64,000 bases of DNA, taken from contig CAWJWJ010000001.1 in NCBI GenBank assembly GCA_963846575.1, forward strand, positions 832,001 to 896,000, given 5' to 3'. Position numbers and translations under genes: made by a program. Origin of the DNA: an uncultured Nitrospiraceae bacterium (GTDB lineage Bacteria; Nitrospirota; Nitrospiria; Nitrospirales; Nitrospiraceae). The notes below the pieces were generated by a model. That model was not told the DNA's origin, ran no database searches, and saw nothing but the letters and a program-made list of their open reading frames with translations. This document shows positions 13,914 to 55,305 of this stretch, in pieces (positions within the stretch are counted from its first letter, which is position 1; each line of letters starts with the position of its first letter).

Positions 13914-13962
13914 GATGGTGGGCGATACTGGTATCGAACCAGTGGCCTCTTCCGTGTGAAGG
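13914..13962 (-). repeat. att site: duplicated 3' part of tRNA-Val
   Basis: GATGGTGGGCGATACTGGTATCGAACCAGTGGCCTCTTCCGTGTGAAGG, identical to 20242-20290. Confidence 0.95.
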
Positions 13963-14091
13963 TAAAAAGCTAGATTTTCGAATTGCTCGCTGTTGCAACG
14001 GTTTCCCCACAAAACCTTTCAATGTCATGTGGTTAAGAGCTTTCTATCGCGTCTACTGTGTACAGGAGATTTTAAGGTTTTGGCTTATTTC

Positions 14092-14113
14092 TGACACAAA
14101 AATGACCACAGTG
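14092..14113 (+). repeat. 22-bp direct repeat, putative integrase arm site (copy 1)
   Basis: TGACACAAAAATGACCACAGTG, identical to 20179-20200. Confidence 0.75.
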
Positions 14114-14278
14114 CCTCGGAAGACAGGATCGTTAATCAGCGGGGAGGGTCAAAAAATCGGGCAGTCCGAACACTCCAGCAATGAACGACGGTCGAGCGGC
14201 TCGCAAAATCGCTGACCGCTGACTACAGAGCCGTACCACCATGGTATACTGCCTGCGGATACACTGGATGTGCTGCCG

Positions 14279-14533
14279 ATGAAAGCCGTGAAGTACACCA
14301 AAGAAGGCGTAGTGATTCCCTCCTCCTGGATGAAGGGGTGGGGAAAAGCCGTCGTGGCACATCGCGACTCCGACGTCCTGATCTTGGAGTCCCCGGCCAG
14401 AGCGGCGAGTCGCAAGAAGTTGGCCCGTATGGTCAGCAAGCTACGCCGCGCCACCCGCGAACTGGGCGTCACCCCCGAACAGATTGCCGCTGAGGTTGCA
14501 GCGGTTCGGCGCGAGCGTGCGCGTCCTTCTTGA
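14279..14533 (+). CDS. Putative antitoxin (AbrB/VapB-like) of PIN TA pair
   Basis: Small ORF overlapping the PIN gene; GVVIP motif; LGVTPEQIAAEVAAVR tail. Confidence 0.65.
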   Translation: MKAVKYTKEGVVIPSSWMKGWGKAVVAHRDSDVLILESPARAASRKKLARMVSKLRRATRELGVTPEQIAAEVAAVRRERARPS

Positions 14534-14936
14534 TACCAATATATTCGTGTCCGGCCTGTTGTCCGCCGCAGGGCCTCCTGCCCGGATCATTCAGGCTGTC
14601 TTACAGCGCCGCCTCATCCCCCTCATGAGCTCCGATACTTTCGCGGAACTGGAAGCCGTCCTGCGGCGGCCCAAACTCCAACGGGCGTTCACCCGCGCTG
14701 GGGTGAATATCACGAGCTTTCTAGCGACCATCCAAGCTGAAGTGCAGTTCGTCGATCCCCATCCCACGAATACTCCGTTGCGTGATGCGCATGATCGACC
14801 GTTCCTCGATCTCATGGCGACCTCACCTCCACCGCAATATTTCGTCACCGGAGATAAGGATTTCGAGGCCTCACACTACAGTGGCGTGCCGGTCATTTCA
14901 GCTGCCGAGTTTGCCCGCCTGCTCACACATCGCTAG
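14517..14936 (+). CDS. PIN-domain (VapC-like) toxin
   Basis: RVLLDTNIFVSGLL..E...RDAHDRPF..FVTGDKD. Confidence 0.88.
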   Translation: MRVLLDTNIFVSGLLSAAGPPARIIQAVLQRRLIPLMSSDTFAELEAVLRRPKLQRAFTRAGVNITSFLATIQAEVQFVDPHPTNTPLRDAHDRPFLDLMATSPPPQYFVTGDKDFEASHYSGVPVISAAEFARLLTHR

Positions 14937-15126
14937 TGGATTCTTGTCTTGCTCACAATGCGAAGCTACGCGCGCCGTTGCTTCGATCTCCGCTGGCAGC
15001 GAGGTATTCAGCGTCCATTCGGACTACCGTAATTGGGTGAACCGCCGTGAGAGCTCGAGAGAGCCTGTCTGGGGAAGCGTGCCTGCTAGCTGTAGAAGTG
15101 GACGCCTCATTCACCCACTTCTTCGC

Positions 15127-15537
15127 TCAAAGCTCGGAACGCTCACTCAGGAAAGGAGAGAATAATCTTGTTCTGGCACCAGCAGGCACCACAACAGCCA
15201 AGGTATACGCAGTGGCAGATGAGACCATGGCGGTCACCCCATTGAACTTCACGACATTGTTGGAGGGAACCGGATCAAATCCGTAGCCTTGCACGCGACA
15301 GAGTTCCGTGACTGGTCCACTGCCGGGATTCACGAGATAGATCCCGATGCCACTGCCATGCGGCGTGAAGCGATCGATCGAGAGAAGATTGCCGACTGGA
15401 TCGTAGTTGTAGACGGCGGTCGCGCCAGTACTGTCGCTCACACTTGTGAGGCGACCCTGGTCATCATAGAGATATTGGGCTTGATCGGCTTGGAGTGACG
15501 AAACGAGACAAAACAAAAAAATAACCGTCGGAATCAT
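15127..15537 (-). pseudogene. Truncated N-terminal fragment of a secreted YD/Rhs protein with IPT/TIG domain
   Basis: Signal peptide, YLYDDQGRL and YNYDPVGNL YD repeats, PGSGP..GYGF..NVVKFNG..VVVP IPT domain, then abrupt end. Confidence 0.7.
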
Positions 15538-15625
15538 TCGACCTTCGACGGCTAGCTGTTTTCCTGATAACACTTAGTTTCCTCGTTTTTCATGAGGATT
15601 TACATTGATGGTGACTTGCATCTAG

Positions 15626-16141
15626 TTATTTCTTAGACATGTTCGGCTCAACAAATTGAACGGCCAACATGTCTACAACTCCTGATAGATTTTCTATACT
15701 GTGCCCAATTTCAGCCCGTTGGTTAACCGAAAGTTGAAACAATTCGCTTGTCTTTTCTCGAAGCACCCTTCCATGAAAGTCGACAAAAAAGGTGTCGTCC
15801 GGGGATTTCAGTTTGAGTTTTATCGCTCCATCTTCCAGAGGGACAGATCCCCGAGTCGCCGTGAGCATTTTTTTTAACTTGCGAAGGAGAGGGTGTTCAC
15901 CAGACGGATTAAAAGAGGTAGGGGTTCCCGTAATAATCTGAATCTTAAACGAGCTTCTCTCCTCTATTTCTGTCATTCGAATCCCAACCAACATGGAGGC
16001 CTCAAACGGGTCATAGAAAACTTTCGCCACTGCTGGCGCATTTGGCCTATCATTCTTCGATTGTCCTGAAACGTTCCCGACGAAAAATACACAAAACAAA
16101 TAGAAGAGAAGACAACAAATCTTTACAGCGCTACTTCTCAC
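15626..16141 (-). CDS. Putative immunity protein (exported) for the Rhs toxin tip
   Basis: Overlaps the Rhs ORF end, AT-rich, N-terminal signal peptide, no recognisable family. Confidence 0.55.
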   Translation of the reverse strand: MRSSAVKICCLLFYLFCVFFVGNVSGQSKNDRPNAPAVAKVFYDPFEASMLVGIRMTEIEERSSFKIQIITGTPTSFNPSGEHPLLRKLKKMLTATRGSVPLEDGAIKLKLKSPDDTFFVDFHGRVLREKTSELFQLSVNQRAEIGHSIENLSGVVDMLAVQFVEPNMSKK

Positions 16142-17402
16142 TGTTGCTCCTTTTGCATGGCAAATCGATATGTTGAGTGCGAATAGGTTCGTTTAGATCT
16201 TGAGACACGGGGTTTTCGTACTGGCCAATTATGCGCACTTCGTATTCCCTTATCGTCTCAGTCTGATTCATTTTGTAATCAATTAGGTGGCCCATTTCAT
16301 GAGCCAATGCTCGCTCCAGGGAGAAAGTGAATTTTCGACCTCCCGAGCAGCTGCTAAGGCCTTGCACGTAAGTGGGGTCTATTTCTATCCAAAGATATGC
16401 GGCCCGACTAACTTTCCACCCAGTCCTATCTATGACTTGGTAATGAGTCAATGAGTTCTGAAGCTCGGTAATCATTCGAAGGCCGGATGGGCTCTTCGCA
16501 ATAAGATTGCCGAAAGCTACTTGAAACACGGGGTTTGAAGGAATGTCTAATATCAATCCAAACGGATCAACGAAGGACAGTGGCCGATTGGCAACATAGA
16601 CATATAAATTCATGGCACTGCTACCAAACTCAATAGGATCCTCACCGACAAACCGCTGGATCTTCGGGTGATAGTACCGCGCCCCATAGAAGTAGAGTCC
16701 CGTCCCATCATTCTCCCGCCCTGTGTACTGAAACTCATTACTGCTGACAGTGCCTGCTTGCGTGGAATTGCCGAAGGGCTCATAAGTGTACGTGGTCTGA
16801 CTCGTCCCGGCGGGATTCGTGAGCGCGATGGAGGTCCCGAGCGCATCGGTCTCGTAGAACTCATCGCTAGCGCCTTTGCGAATGTAGGGCTCATCAATGC
16901 TCAATCCACGGATATAGGTGACCGACGGGGTCGCCCCCGTCAATTCGGCATATACGTCACTCCCGTCGTACCAGAACCCGGCGGTGGTACCGTTGATCGT
17001 CTTGCTTTGTCTTCGTCCCAATCCGTCATAGATGAAGCTTGCCGTCAAACCGGTTCGGCTGATTCCTGTCAGTCTGTTTCTGGCATCCCACGTATAGGTC
17101 GTGGTCACCCCGGCTTGCGTCTCGGTCGCGAGATTGCCATTGCTGTCATATGTCAAATTGGTAGTCGCGCTGTTCCACCGTGTTAGCTCATTCGCCACGT
17201 CGTACCCAATATTGGCGGCGGCCACGGCTGTAGGAAGGTTAGAAGCAACCGCGTTCTGACGTAACTGCGTGATCCGATTTCCCTGCTTATCGTACGTATA
17301 GGTGAGCGCTTCAATCGTCGTCGGCGTCAGGGTTTTACTTCCCTCTGATCCTATCCCAGAACGCGGGGAATGCCTCCCAAACTGTTTTTCGCGCACGGTC
17401 AA
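16131..17402 (-). CDS. Orphan Rhs C-terminal module: YD repeats, Rhs core, HExxH metallopeptidase toxin tip (5' truncated)
   Basis: YTGRENDGTGLYFYGARYY, NLYVYVANRPLSFVDPFGL cleavage motif, tip with LAHEMGH. Confidence 0.85.
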   Translation of the reverse strand: MTVREKQFGRHSPRSGIGSEGSKTLTPTTIEALTYTYDKQGNRITQLRQNAVASNLPTAVAAANIGYDVANELTRWNSATTNLTYDSNGNLATETQAGVTTTYTWDARNRLTGISRTGLTASFIYDGLGRRQSKTINGTTAGFWYDGSDVYAELTGATPSVTYIRGLSIDEPYIRKGASDEFYETDALGTSIALTNPAGTSQTTYTYEPFGNSTQAGTVSSNEFQYTGRENDGTGLYFYGARYYHPKIQRFVGEDPIEFGSSAMNLYVYVANRPLSFVDPFGLILDIPSNPVFQVAFGNLIAKSPSGLRMITELQNSLTHYQVIDRTGWKVSRAAYLWIEIDPTYVQGLSSCSGGRKFTFSLERALAHEMGHLIDYKMNQTETIREYEVRIIGQYENPVSQDLNEPIRTQHIDLPCKRSNSEK

Positions 17403-17750
17403 AAAACCGGTCGATTTTTGGTTACTGCATGTTCCGGCTCTGAACGATGCTCACAATTGCCGCTCTGAGCGCACTAAAACGCACATACGCCTCCTTATGC
17501 CTACTTCCTTTCGTGCCTCATCTGTCCCAAAATCTGTCCTCTCCTGTCCCCGCGTGACCCCTAGTGGCCCCTTCAGGGGCCTTTGCTTCACTCCGGTGAT
17601 TCGCCTAGGGTGAGACGAACGGGAACAGGGCTCAAATGGAGGGAATGATGTCCGAGTCGGAACGCGTCAGACAGGAACACCGTCGTCCGTGGAAGGGAGA
17701 CAAAGCCGGTCCGCGCCGCATGCCGTCAGGCTGGGGCGCGGAGCGGAATG

Positions 17751-17775
17751 GCCCCCGTCTTGGTAACACGGGGGC
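17751..17775 (+). promoter_or_regulatory. Putative rolling-circle nick site (dso/oriT) hairpin
   Basis: GCCCCCGT-CTTGGTAAC-ACGGGGGC, 40 bp upstream of the Rep_trans gene. Confidence 0.6.
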
Positions 17776-17814
17776 GCTACCCACAGCGCTCCGTACAGGA
17801 GTTCGATAGATTCC

Positions 17815-18822
17815 ATGGATTCTAGCTTCACCCTCTCGATTGATTGGCTGGCCTTTACCGTCTTGGCGAGCAACCCCCAAGAGACCATGAAGGTTCTTGG
17901 CGGCGATTGGAGTAGGGCCAAAGGGGACTTCCGAGGGTATCCCTTGTCCTGGATGCGGGTAGACGGCCTGCGCGGGGTCGGCAAACTGGGCACCAATGCC
18001 CCTCGTCGTCCGAATGAAATCCATGTGGACTTGTCGGGCGGCCTCGCGTCCGCCATGACACTGGATCAGATCCGAACCCTGCTCAAGTGGGTACATGCCC
18101 AACAGGGGCATGTCACACGCATCGACTGTGCACTCGATGACCGAGCGGGAACGGTGCCGGTCTCGACCATCCGAGAAGCGGTATCGGCAGGCCAATGTGT
18201 CACGAGGGCGGCTCAGGTCCGGCATATCGTGTCCAATCTGACGCATGGGACAGGAGCCACCACGGGCGAGACGATGTACTTCGGGAGTCCGCAGAGTCAG
18301 ACCTTGCTCCGTATCTACGACAAGCGCTTGGAACTGCAGAGCAAGGGCCAGGAAAACTACCAGGACTACGGGACTCGGTGGGAGTTGGAACTCAAGAAGG
18401 ACCGCGCCGAGCAATGTGCAAGAGCATTGGCGACCTTAGACGAAGCCGATTGGAAGGAGTTAGTAGTCGGCTTGCTTCGCTCCTATGTGGATTTCAGACA
18501 GATTACCAAAGAGACAGAGGATGAAGACCGATACCGGGCTCCAGTCTTGGAGTGGTACGCCCTCCTGACGGAGGGATTTCAGAAGGGGCGATTGGCCCAG
18601 GAGAAGCAGGTACAGACCCTGCAGTATGTGAAACGATGGGTGAGTGACACCCTGACGCCGATGTTGGCGGTTATTTGTGCCACCCCTGGAGGGGAAGAAT
18701 GGCTACAGCAGGAAATTGTCAGGGGCATTGCTCGGTGGAAAGACCGACACCGCAATTTGCTCAAACAACCACCCAATCGGTTTCACCGGTCTGCCGGCGG
18801 TCACGCGGGCAGCCCATGTTAG
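17815..18822 (+). CDS. Rep_trans family replication initiator / MOBT-like relaxase
   Basis: IDWLAFT, TRIDCALD, GETMYFGS, RIYDK, RWELELK motifs. Confidence 0.88.
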   Translation: MDSSFTLSIDWLAFTVLASNPQETMKVLGGDWSRAKGDFRGYPLSWMRVDGLRGVGKLGTNAPRRPNEIHVDLSGGLASAMTLDQIRTLLKWVHAQQGHVTRIDCALDDRAGTVPVSTIREAVSAGQCVTRAAQVRHIVSNLTHGTGATTGETMYFGSPQSQTLLRIYDKRLELQSKGQENYQDYGTRWELELKKDRAEQCARALATLDEADWKELVVGLLRSYVDFRQITKETEDEDRYRAPVLEWYALLTEGFQKGRLAQEKQVQTLQYVKRWVSDTLTPMLAVICATPGGEEWLQQEIVRGIARWKDRHRNLLKQPPNRFHRSAGGHAGSPC

Positions 18823-18864
18823 GGGGACTGGGGGTGTCGGCAGACTCCCCCGGTGTATCTGCAC

Positions 18865-19179
18865 ATGCTCACCGTCAAAGAGCTCTCGGCTTGGCTCAAC
18901 ATCAAGCCGTCCACACTCTACCTCTGGGTTTCCAAGAAAAAGATTCCGTGCCGTCGCATTCATGGCCTCGTCCGCTTTGAACCTGAGGCGATCCAGGCCT
19001 GGCTAAACGGCTTTTCTTCTACGTCGAATATGAGGCCTCACCGCGTGCCTCGGCGTAAAGCTGGTGACGTAGACCACCTCATTGAAGCGGCTAAACGTGC
19101 CGTCTATACTTCCCGCCACGGGGAAACCAGACCAACAGCGAGCCCTCTTGGAAAGGAGAACAACGATGGGGCTCGTTAA
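18865..19179 (+). CDS. Excisionase-like HTH DNA-binding protein
   Basis: MLTVKELSAWLNIKPSTLYLWV...IP..RI..LVRF; directly before int. Confidence 0.85.
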   Translation: MLTVKELSAWLNIKPSTLYLWVSKKKIPCRRIHGLVRFEPEAIQAWLNGFSSTSNMRPHRVPRRKAGDVDHLIEAAKRAVYTSRHGETRPTASPLGKENNDGAR

Positions 19180-20287
19180 GCGTGGGAGTATTTGGTGGAT
19201 GAATATTGTGTTTCAAGGGCAACGCATTCGCCGCTCGACAGGGTCATCGAATCGAGCTTTGGCTGACGCCATTATGGCGAAGGTGAAGGTGCAATTGATC
19301 GAGGGGCAGTATTTTGATCGAGCGGAGGAACAATCTCGGACCTTCGCGGAATTGATGGATCGTTTTGAGCGAGAACACCTGGTGAAACTGGCCAGCCGAC
19401 AAACCGGACAAGCCTTCGTCAAGCGCTTCCGGGCCTTCTTCGGAGACCGGACGCTCGGCGAGATTACCCCTAAGCTGATCGCGGAGTATAAAAGTCGACG
19501 GTACGCTACCGGGGTGAAACCTGCCTCGATCAATCGAGAGCTCACCTGTTTGCGAAAGGCCTTCAACCTGGCGAGGCGGGAGTGGGAATGGTGTCGAGAC
19601 AATCCCGTCAGTCGCGTGTCTCTCGAAAAGGGCGCGACGAAACGAGACCGATGGCTGATGGAAGACGAGGAGGCACGATTGCTCGATGCCTGTCCGTCTT
19701 GGTTACGCGAGCTCGTGGTGTTCGCGCTGCATAGCGGGATGCGGTTGGGCGAGATCCTGTCACTGACCTGTGCCGGAGTGGATCTGTTCCGAAGAACGGC
19801 GACCGTGTTTGAGTCGAAAAACGGCGAGCGACGGACAGTGCCATTGAATCACACCGTGATGACGCTCCTGACGGAGAAGGCCAAAGTGCGGCATATCAAA
19901 ACCGCACTGGTCTTTCCGAGTCTCGCTGGTACACGGTTAGATCCTAACCATCTGCGACGGGCGTTGCGGCCTGCGATGGCAAAAGCGGGGATTGTGAACT
20001 GCCATTTCCATGACCTCCGCCACACCTTTGCGACGCGGCTGGTCCAGGCGGGAGTCGATCTTTACAAGGTGCAACGGCTCCTCGGGCACAAGTCGCCGAT
20101 GATGACGCAACGTTATGCTCATCATTACCCGGAAAGCCTGCGGGATGGAGTGGAGATTTTGGACCGACGATCACACTGTGACACAAAAATGACCACAGTG
20201 TTGCGCGTATCAGAGAGTGCTGTCGTGGAAGTCGTTGAAAAGATGGTGGGCGATACTGGTATCGAACCAGTGGCCTCTTCCGTGTGA
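19166..20287 (+). CDS. Tyrosine recombinase (phage-type integrase)
   Basis: AAGGAG RBS; SGMRLGEI, HDLRHTFA, LLGH, TQRY catalytic residues; arm-binding N-terminus. Confidence 0.95.
   Translation: MGLVKRGSIWWMNIVFQGQRIRRSTGSSNRALADAIMAKVKVQLIEGQYFDRAEEQSRTFAELMDRFEREHLVKLASRQTGQAFVKRFRAFFGDRTLGEITPKLIAEYKSRRYATGVKPASINRELTCLRKAFNLARREWEWCRDNPVSRVSLEKGATKRDRWLMEDEEARLLDACPSWLRELVVFALHSGMRLGEILSLTCAGVDLFRRTATVFESKNGERRTVPLNHTVMTLLTEKAKVRHIKTALVFPSLAGTRLDPNHLRRALRPAMAKAGIVNCHFHDLRHTFATRLVQAGVDLYKVQRLLGHKSPMMTQRYAHHYPESLRDGVEILDRRSHCDTKMTTVLRVSESAVVEVVEKMVGDTGIEPVASSV
20179..20200 (+). repeat. 22-bp direct repeat, putative integrase arm site (copy 2)
   Basis: Identical to 14092-14113. Confidence 0.75.
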
Positions 20288-20318
20288 AGGAAGCGCTCTC
20301 CCCCTGAGCTAATCGCCC
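20244..20318 (-). tRNA. tRNA-Val(CAC), integration target
   Basis: Reverse complement GGGCGATTAGCTCAG...CTTCC-TTCACAC-GGAAG...GGTTCGATACC...CGCCCACCA. Confidence 0.95.
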
Positions 20319-55230: not shown

Positions 55231-55305
55231 GCGGGAATAGCTCAGTGGTAGAGCATCGCCTTGCCAAGGCGAGGGTCGCGGGTTCAAATCCCGTTTCCCG
55301 CTCCA
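55231..55305 (+). tRNA. tRNA-Gly(GCC)
   Basis: GCGGGAA acceptor stem, TCGCC-TTGCCAA-GGCGA anticodon arm, GGTTCAAATCC, CCA. Confidence 0.96.

Follow-up and report, generated by a model that had tools for sequence, protein, structure and literature searches.

A tRNA-integrated rolling-circle island of Nitrospiraceae as a likely satellite of inoviruses

We found few satellites of filamentous phages (inoviruses) in print, namely RS1, TLC and pDolos, and none of these combines an integrase of its own with variable cargo. The authors of the pDolos study expect such satellite systems to be common (bioRxiv 10.1101/2023.11.28.569023). We have analysed a stretch of 64,000 nucleotides from an uncultured Nitrospiraceae bacterium (assembly GCA_963846575.1, contig CAWJWJ010000001.1, positions 832,001–896,000), called the window below, in which an island with the gene order rep–xis–int is inserted at a tRNA-Val gene. 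We suggest that this island is a coat-less relative of the inovirus prophages residing in the same genome and that it is likely to be their integrative satellite, equipped with its own integrase and with cargo genes.

Kinship of the island with inoviruses of the same genome

The source genome contains seven Rep_trans loci. Three of them are rep–xis–int islands, the other two being located at tRNA-Arg and tRNA-Thr, both with a rep gene that is split in the assembly, and four are filamentous (inovirus) prophages. The prophages have genes for a helix-turn-helix (HTH) protein, Rep, an ssb-like protein, a pIII-like protein, a pVI-like minor-coat protein (phrog_306/974), Zot (PF05707, E 1e-29), a 70-aa coat protein (putative phage coat in the Atlas, 0.98) and RadC as well as an integration module; the ssb-like label is based on size and position and the pIII-like label is also our own. 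The prophage Reps are 46–52% identical to the Rep of the window island. The four prophages (G000:C2:2083773-2091140, L052; C2:434421-441661, L053; C2:1344247-1351546, L054; C1:1-6544, L055) sit at tRNA-Phe, Ala, Arg-tct and Lys and have nearly identical coat proteins, and their integration modules differ, one of them having a gene that by eye is serine-recombinase-like. IMG/VR contains seven viral contigs of this prophage type. In most phages of the genus conserved GC-rich intergenic stretches separate radC from xis and follow the coat gene. No island has them, and they might serve the phages themselves as signals for packaging or for the minus strand.

What the island lacks is the morphogenesis block. 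Among the 34 islands for which both ends could be found after removal of identical rep regions (bounded islands, the window island included), there is no match to the ssb-like, pIII-like, pVI-like, Zot, coat, HTH or RadC proteins of the co-resident phages. The window element has one short hydrophobic open reading frame (ORF) only, which comprises 46 aa and runs antisense to an Rhs piece, and a Pfam scan of the element's ORFs returned no family of type IV secretion systems (T4SS) or coupling proteins. The first-pass annotation, which had been made from the letters alone, had read this locus as a perfect 49-bp attachment (att) repeat in tRNA-Val around rep–xis–int without capsid, Zot/assembly, T4SS or coupling genes, and the repeat search and the Pfam scan bear out both statements. 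The two types of loci also differ in spacing: in 55 of 56 island rows the gap between rep and int is 340–356 bp and free of Zot (one row is broken, and a few records were fetched twice), whereas the phage-type rows have a gap of about 5 kb with Zot in 18 of 19, the remaining one being cut by a contig end. In metagenomes all 66 loci that hold both rep and int have a gap of 339–350 bp, and Zot was found in none of the 80 metagenome loci.

In their non-coding DNA islands and phages widely share just the origin and the operator region. Rep_trans/Phage_CRI is the sole domain match of the 335-aa Rep, which has no N-terminal HTH, and its only match in the PDB is RepSTK1 (4CIJ, E 3e-19). The predicted origin is a hairpin 62 bp before rep that differs by two bases from the phage version; a profile built from the phage origins matches 33 of the 34 bounded islands and 27 of 32 distant loci. 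A near-identical hairpin lies within the pSTK1 fragment that served as the origin in RepSTK1 assays (PMC3792671). In two of 196 distinct sites 11 nt are duplicated without mismatch immediately 3′ of the predicted nick, the duplicated stretch beginning with the T-A step of the loop. In two further sites the left arm is replaced at this same step. Rep_trans proteins of the pT181 family continue synthesis for 9–12 nt past the nick (PMC4797284). Thus, we read the duplications as rolling-circle scars and place the nick accordingly (Table 1), although both duplications may go back to a single ancestral event.

Upstream of the origin the window island has a candidate operator of four repeats, which aligns with the DNA preceding the HTH gene in the phages, their HTH/rep promoter region. 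By pattern searches 24 of the 67 islands and 13 of the 16 phages have these repeats, while 27 of the 67 islands have a gene for a NikA-like ribbon-helix-helix (RHH) protein before rep and 16 have neither. The HTH gene itself is absent from the window island. As the operator repeats are kept but the HTH gene is missing, the HTH protein of a helper or the island's own Xis may switch on rep; this is a weaker suggestion. A second hairpin with a GNNA loop precedes the nick hairpin, its stem being nearly invariant and its loop variable. With a single compensatory pair, covariation gives no information on the hairpins of the origin. An alignment of 41 sequences of the double hairpin between rep and xis has four compensatory pairs in the first stem, a value that none of 500 shuffles reached, though relatedness of the sequences can inflate this count. 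In an Rfam scan nothing was found apart from the tRNA and one sub-threshold match to narK.

The phylogeny of Rep is in agreement with this kinship. A first tree was an unrooted quick version in which 26 genus island Reps and three distant rows were skipped; a careful tree was then calculated from 43 chosen rows, L269 being omitted as too short. In this tree the 20 capsid-less Reps form one side of a branch with support 95/89, and the island clade is sister (94/91) to a phage clade that holds the prophages of the source genome, with a second phage clade outside. Islands and phages also appear to have exchanged parts, as is suggested by two loci of one genome (L142 and L144, G303), in which a phage-type radC, then the double hairpin and xis–int come after an island-clade Rep, so that we regard them as island–phage recombinants, and by one phage whose xis–int is 53–59% identical to that of the islands. 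At L015 and L043 an island and a complete inovirus are convergent and flank one tRNA-Arg(cct). The idea that islands and phages never share tRNAs holds for the sample of the genus and fails family-wide, as the phage L263 is located at tRNA-Met(cat).

At the ends of the island the integrase has kept all of its R-K-H-R-H-Y motifs. The two att copies are spaced by 6328 bp. As the reading frame of the integrase ends at a stop codon inside the att core, excision would leave it intact. Integrases of the Val class exceed those of the other classes by about 16 aa, and their last codons run antisense through the 3′ half of the tRNA (window 20242–20287). Further inside, 25 of the 34 bounded islands have a repeat of 15–22 bp at roughly equal offsets from both ends, the pattern expected for arm sites of the integrase, and this is the role that we assign to them.

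Table 1. Features of the window island (positions refer to the window).
Feature	Position	Strand	Remarks
att core copy, a duplicate of the 3′ half of tRNA-Val	13914..13962	none	cargo-side boundary; 49-bp perfect repeat
predicted arm-type site of the integrase on the cargo side (tandem pair)	14092..14113	+	22-bp perfect repeat with 20179–20200
putative antitoxin (84 aa when started at ATG; ORF in list begins at 14270)	14279..14533	+	overlaps PIN gene; no family match
PIN-domain (VapC-like) toxin	14517..14936	+	PIN_3 E 1.7e-16; start inferred from sequence
Rhs fragment, 148 aa: signal-peptide-like start, one RHS repeat, start of IPT/TIG domain	15127..15573	−	
candidate immunity protein, 171 aa	15626..16141	−	position, signal-peptide-like N-terminus, GC 0.44; no family match
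orphan Rhs core and HExxH C-terminal tip (metallopeptidase-like)	16131..17402	−	RHS_repeat; not full-length Rhs
four 10-bp phased direct repeats, candidate operator	17534..17573	+	aligns with phage HTH/rep promoter region
GNNA-loop hairpin upstream of nick hairpin	17706..17746	+	fold of 17695–17800 z = −4.2
predicted double-strand origin (nick hairpin)	17751..17775	+	predicted nick between 17764 and 17765
Rep_trans rolling-circle initiator, 335 aa	17815..18822	+	Pfam Rep_trans E 4e-34; omega ~0.07
double GNNA hairpin between rep and xis	18792..18851	+	family-wide; candidate single-strand origin, packaging or regulatory signal
excisionase-like HTH_17 protein (xis)	18865..19179	+	Pfam HTH_17 (4e-11), phrog_66
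tyrosine integrase, 373 aa	19166..20287	+	Pfam phage integrase (4e-39)
predicted integrase arm-type site, integrase-side arm	20179..20200	+	22-bp perfect repeat
att core copy inside intact tRNA	20242..20290	none	49-bp perfect repeat
tRNA-Val(cac), integration target	20244..20318	−	right att copy is its 3′ part

The island family, its insertion sites and its cargo

The first-pass annotation had proposed to search related genomes for rep–xis–int at tRNAs with variable cargo, and such elements are indeed found in the genus and in other genera of the Nitrospiraceae. Close relatives of the Rep (84–96%) occur in 43 loci, mostly titled Nitrospira. Within the genus 36 of 39 genomes have a match to Rep, which reaches 70% or more in 31 of them, and in the family 120 of the 321 genomes, from 13 of the 37 genera, have a match to either Rep type. 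Of the 28 other family genomes that were sampled, 10 have a 22-nt motif of the islands, which was absent from all 172 other Nitrospirota genomes. The bounded islands are 4.1–16.6 kb long (median 6.8 kb) and are located at tRNA-Arg(cct) (10), Glu(ctc) (7), Val(cac) (6), Thr(cgt) (6), Gly(gcc) (4) and Met(cat) (1). All 34 have a full-length integrase, while rep is split in five. The integrases are 69–100% alike within a site and 41–77% between sites and fall into six tRNA-specific classes; those at the Val site are 94–98% identical to each other and 43–62% identical to integrases at other tRNAs. In contrast, Rep divergence is nearly equal within and between sites (dS, the synonymous divergence, 0.63 versus 0.67). 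Another 40 loci, 38 of them from other genera, mostly have the order rep–xis–int and largely use the same tRNAs.

Four capsid-less loci (L148, L149, L151, L265) have the origin and the double hairpin, no xis match and a different type of integrase; L148 and L149 have identical Reps within one genome. The window contains in addition a tRNA-Gly(gcc) gene (55231–55305) which is an island target in relatives and has no adjoining Rep or integrase match in the source genome. At several sites extra att copies are present, which indicate repeated insertion: three upstream of the tRNA-Arg island of the source genome (G000:C2:516500-528000, L056) and two upstream of its tRNA-Thr island (C2:128500-145500, L057), where they point to tandem accretion of older insertions.

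The divergence of the genes argues for mobility. For the Val site 16 of 17 loci were usable, giving 120 non-independent pairs with a median dS of 0.56 for rep and 0.33 for int compared to 1.21 for the adjacent host gene trmFO. An omega (ratio of nonsynonymous to synonymous substitution) of 0.07–0.08 for both genes at this site demonstrates purifying selection. Two of the three pairs with a host dS below 0.1 carry clearly different reps, and island-gene dS correlates weakly with host dS (rho 0.27–0.33). As rep and int are far less diverged than the neighbouring host gene, the islands appear to move between species, and judged from these sequences the family is mobile across species and not fossil. 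The DNA next to the flanking gene was compared in 30 loci, of which 16 have an att arm of the island type, six have no clear core and eight have an intact tRNA and are thus empty, although one of these eight was judged by eye at a contig end and another lies behind an integrase remnant.

The slot between the att site and the origin is a hotspot for cargo. In the window island it is occupied by a PIN gene with a partner whose identity as antitoxin we deduce from its position, a pair that recurs in other Val-site islands and is likely to stabilise the island, and by Rhs DNA. The latter consists of fragments: the core-plus-tip piece aligns just to residues 1496–1746 of a 1906-aa Rhs of a relative, the 148-aa piece lies downstream of it, and a full-length Rhs with delivery domains is not present in the island. 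The tip weakly resembles metallopeptidases, with Peptidase_M91 under the cut-off (E 0.08) and PipA/M85/M91 peptidases as Atlas neighbours (0.95–0.96). Thus, of the PIN toxin–antitoxin pair and Rhs toxin/immunity DNA in the first-pass annotation, the PIN toxin is substantiated by its domain, antitoxin and immunity protein are assigned by position, and the Rhs does not amount to a toxin system. None of the four cargo proteins was matched by PADLOC.

For the comparison of cargo across the family, 177 ORFs from 31 islands other than the source genome's own were grouped into 133 clusters, and 101 of the 111 representatives of at least 95 aa (ten likely shadow ORFs being omitted) were scanned together with the four window proteins. 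PADLOC matched 23 of these 105 proteins at E 1e-6 or better, some via generic domains only; strong matches include Lamassu LmuA, LmuB, dCTP deaminase, AbiTii, type III restriction–modification, Dsr1 and SoFic. Pfam added PIN pairs, TIR, NACHT, arsenic-resistance-type genes, Rhs and pieces of insertion sequences. Rhs pieces were noticed in the window island and in L016, L072 and L073, four of the 34, though not by a systematic count. The cargo thus varies among copies, and by its matches it frequently looks defence-like. The shuttling of competition toxins is not supported as its theme, the more so as the Rhs of the window island is in pieces. Three islands carry multi-gene cargo with few or no defence matches and are candidates for new defence or biosynthetic systems: a TIR-HEAT plus UbiA pair and an oxidoreductase (L065, 5196–11379), a radical-SAM cluster (L078, 9906–14357), and a patatin gene with a metallo-beta-lactamase-fold gene (L013, 4837–9084).

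How the islands might replicate and spread

The set of genes suggests how such an island could be propagated. Xis and Int would excise a circle of 6328 bp from tRNA-Val, Rep would nick the hairpin and start rolling-circle replication, and the released plus strand would be coated and secreted by a co-resident inovirus, presumably via a secretin of the host. Having entered a recipient by the route of its helper, the strand would be converted to the duplex, for which the double hairpin after rep may prime the second strand, and Int would insert the circle at the tRNA-Val gene, the type of integrase deciding which tRNA is used. The first-pass annotation had left open whether the element is a mobilisable island or a helper-dependent satellite; we favour the satellite, with the four Zot-positive prophages as candidate helpers. 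More tentatively, the islands may form a Nitrospiraceae-wide class of satellites that was born once from an inovirus by replacement of the morphogenesis block with a cargo slot, that has swappable tRNA integrases and an operator trigger shared with the helper, and that spreads anti-phage and toxin–antitoxin cargo across nitrifier species by non-lytic secretion.

Several observations weigh against a satellite of inoviruses. Within the genus Zot is found in 17 of 31 island carriers and in four of eight non-carriers and is therefore not enriched, although this is a weak counter-point since satellites persist without helpers. Two single-contig genomes (G001, G021) have islands and no Zot, and in ten of the 31 carriers Zot and conjugation markers are both missing. 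Frameshifts are numerous in the assembled sequence of the source genome's four prophages, none of which is free of a frameshift or deletion, be it real or artefactual. In metagenome contigs a degenerate probe for the attP junction gave no match and none of 80 loci has terminal repeats, and scans of IMG/VR with the island Rep and the double hairpin returned no locus. In the best of the public sequencing runs the share of the window element's words was 0.17. Four DNA and four RNA contig sets contained only pieces of relatives and joints across the whole island that fit empty sites elsewhere; as the 49-bp core likely breaks contigs, these sets cannot show attP, and the RNA sets are uninformative on expression. 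Thus, the first-pass annotation's excisable rolling-circle element of about 6328 bp is corroborated as to mobility by arm sites, intact integrases, empty sites and cross-species spread, and of the two junctions that it had proposed to look for the empty site has been found in relatives, whereas neither the attP junction nor the circle has been seen.

The replication region contains counter-arguments, too. The rstB gene of RS1 has the role of a single-stranded DNA-binding protein. No ssb-like gene is found in the islands, whereas rstB is among the genes of RS1 (PMC3545932). The double hairpin is found before xis in four of 17 phage loci of the genus and in four of 11 distant ones; it is therefore old, yet not needed by every phage, and as most phages lack it, it is ruled out as an obligatory packaging signal. 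Profiles of five phage intergenic regions matched none of 34 and none of 32 island loci, so a packaging signal could not be identified. In addition, a topology with all phages together survives the approximately unbiased (AU) test (p = 0.055) and the outgroups are long-branch; the origin of the islands from a phage is therefore likely, not proven, from the sequences compared.

The same replication genes would also suit an integrative mobilisable element (IME), in which Rep would act in addition as a MOBT-like relaxase, the hairpin would serve also as origin of transfer and a conjugative plasmid or an integrative and conjugative element (ICE) would carry the excised strand. Rep_trans proteins do both jobs in ICEBs1/Tn916 and in streptococcal tRNA IMEs (PMC5704250), and RepSTK1, the closest solved relative, groups with MOBT relaxases (PMC6499999). 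NikA-like RHH proteins belong to a family also used in relaxosomes, so that the gene before rep in 27 of the 67 islands could encode a relaxosome part, a point that counts against the satellite as well. Long matches to coupling proteins were found in eight of the 39 genus genomes, seven of which are island carriers, and VirB4 in four; Zot is commoner in the genus (21 of 39), which we count for the satellite; in the family it is present in 62 of 321 genomes. The Rep, however, is devoid of the N-terminal HTH, the defining feature of MOBT (PMC11389934), its nearest relatives as well as those of origin and promoter are inoviruses, and there are no coupling genes among the 101 cargo proteins scanned. 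Four family searches revealed no transfer genes in the source genome: VirB4, TraG P-loop and T4SS-DNA-transfer had no match and the TrwB match is of P-loop length only (TcpA-type helpers were not searched). We therefore regard an IME, which is the chief rival of the satellite, as unlikely.

Alternatively, the islands might be independent of helpers and, after excision and amplification by rolling circle, spread by natural transformation, vesicles or transduction by tailed phages. This would account for the carriers without Zot and conjugation marker, for the lack of a narrow size class and of an identified packaging signal, and the host has ComEC and two secretins, none of the latter having been seen among the prophage genes. 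But ComEC, which 10 of the 14 control genomes have as well, is no demonstration of competence. Outside the genus the carriers are richer in Zot (13 of 27 examined versus 29 of 257 other genomes, a hand count confounded by kinship and assembly quality), and the plus-strand hairpins with their compensatory changes fit a single-stranded stage, although rolling-circle replication alone also has one. Helper independence therefore appears improbable to us. Decayed, vertically inherited prophage remnants, finally, are largely refuted and have a very low probability. True deletion derivatives of phages do exist (L158, L160, L260, L266), rep is split in some islands and the divergence of the island genes has the said weak correlation with that of the host. 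Yet these derivatives lie outside the island clade, mostly in phage clades and on short branches, whereas the islands form a deep clade of their own whose island genes are under strong constraint (omega ~0.07), have a quarter to half of the host's dS and differ between near-identical hosts; the uniformly full-length integrases of six classes and the extra att copies do not fit decay either. Two of the derivatives, L160 (G266) and L266 (G084), have ssb-like and coat matches and no pIII-like, pVI-like or Zot match, and are possible coat-donating satellites or intermediates of decay.

Comparison with known systems

If the islands are packaged as suggested, they would be a large and defined family of satellites, present in 31 of 39 genomes of a genus of nitrite oxidisers and with candidate helpers in the same cells, and they would provide a non-lytic route by which defence genes move among nitrifiers. 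Pipelines that detect inoviruses by Zot would miss them, so similar islands may have escaped notice elsewhere. Of further use could be the predicted nick site, the covarying pair of hairpins as a candidate single-strand origin or packaging signal, the cargo slot as a place to find new defence genes and possibly integrative tools for Nitrospira. In the literature within reach of our search, which excluded most subscription papers, neither such an element in Nitrospira nor an inovirus satellite encoding an integrase is described. The main text of the survey by Roux 2019 (PMC6813254) contains neither "satellite" nor "Nitrosp", while its supplements may list these prophages, and the accessible parts of PMC13230959, PMC12595487, PMC11630473 and PMC12715192 describe no such element.

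Small integrative phage parasites with hotspots of defence genes are well known as P4-like satellites, PICIs (phage-inducible chromosomal islands) and PICMIs. These parasitise tailed dsDNA phages and are not known to have a Rep_trans rolling-circle initiator; the islands would be the filamentous-phage counterpart of the P4/PICI defence hotspots. Being devoid of the pI/Zot ATPase and of a major coat protein, the window island is not an Inoviridae prophage. The Pf prophages of Pseudomonas aeruginosa, which serve as model of a helper, are tRNA-integrating inoviruses with site-specific integrase classes and with an HTH_17 excisionase which activates rep as well (PMC7549136); they are complete phages, whereas the islands would be the capsid-less partner. 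With the streptococcal MOBT/Rep_trans IMEs, for example IME_Sag2603_tRNAlys, the islands share a tyrosine integrase and Rep_trans, some of these IMEs residing at tRNA genes (PMC5704250). The window island likewise has integrase and att sites, but not the fusion of Rep_trans to HTH found in the MOBT proteins of these IMEs, ICEBs1 and Tn916; moreover, many of these IMEs encode TcpA, which the window island lacks, and the islands are nearest to inoviruses. pSTK1 of Geobacillus has the near-identical origin hairpin, but is a free plasmid of 1.9 kb with a Rep identity of 26%.

The described satellites of inoviruses come closer. pDolos of Shewanella is a rolling-circle replicon which exploits an inovirus (bioRxiv 10.1101/2023.11.28.569023); unlike the islands it is a non-integrating plasmid of 2.9 kb without integrase or att. 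TLC, whose helper is fs2phi, is an integrated rolling-circle element without coat genes that is packaged by the filamentous phage (PMC3545932), but differs from the islands by a Cri/pII-type replicase, integration at dif and a fixed gene set. RS1 of Vibrio cholerae, with the helpers CTXphi, KSF-1phi and VGJphi, is likewise integrated, has no morphogenesis genes and has its replication region in common with the helper (PMC3545932), and the initiator of CTXphi is also a Rep_trans protein (PMC4797284). RS1 has, on the other hand, about 3 kb with rstR, rstA, rstB and rstC and is integrated at dif by XerC/D of the host (PMC3545932). Its packaging has been demonstrated, whereas the islands are known from sequence alone. 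RS1 and TLC are defined as a class (IMEX) by integration at dif without an integrase of their own; the islands depart from this class, as they have a tRNA-targeting integrase with Xis and 1.5–14 kb of variable cargo.

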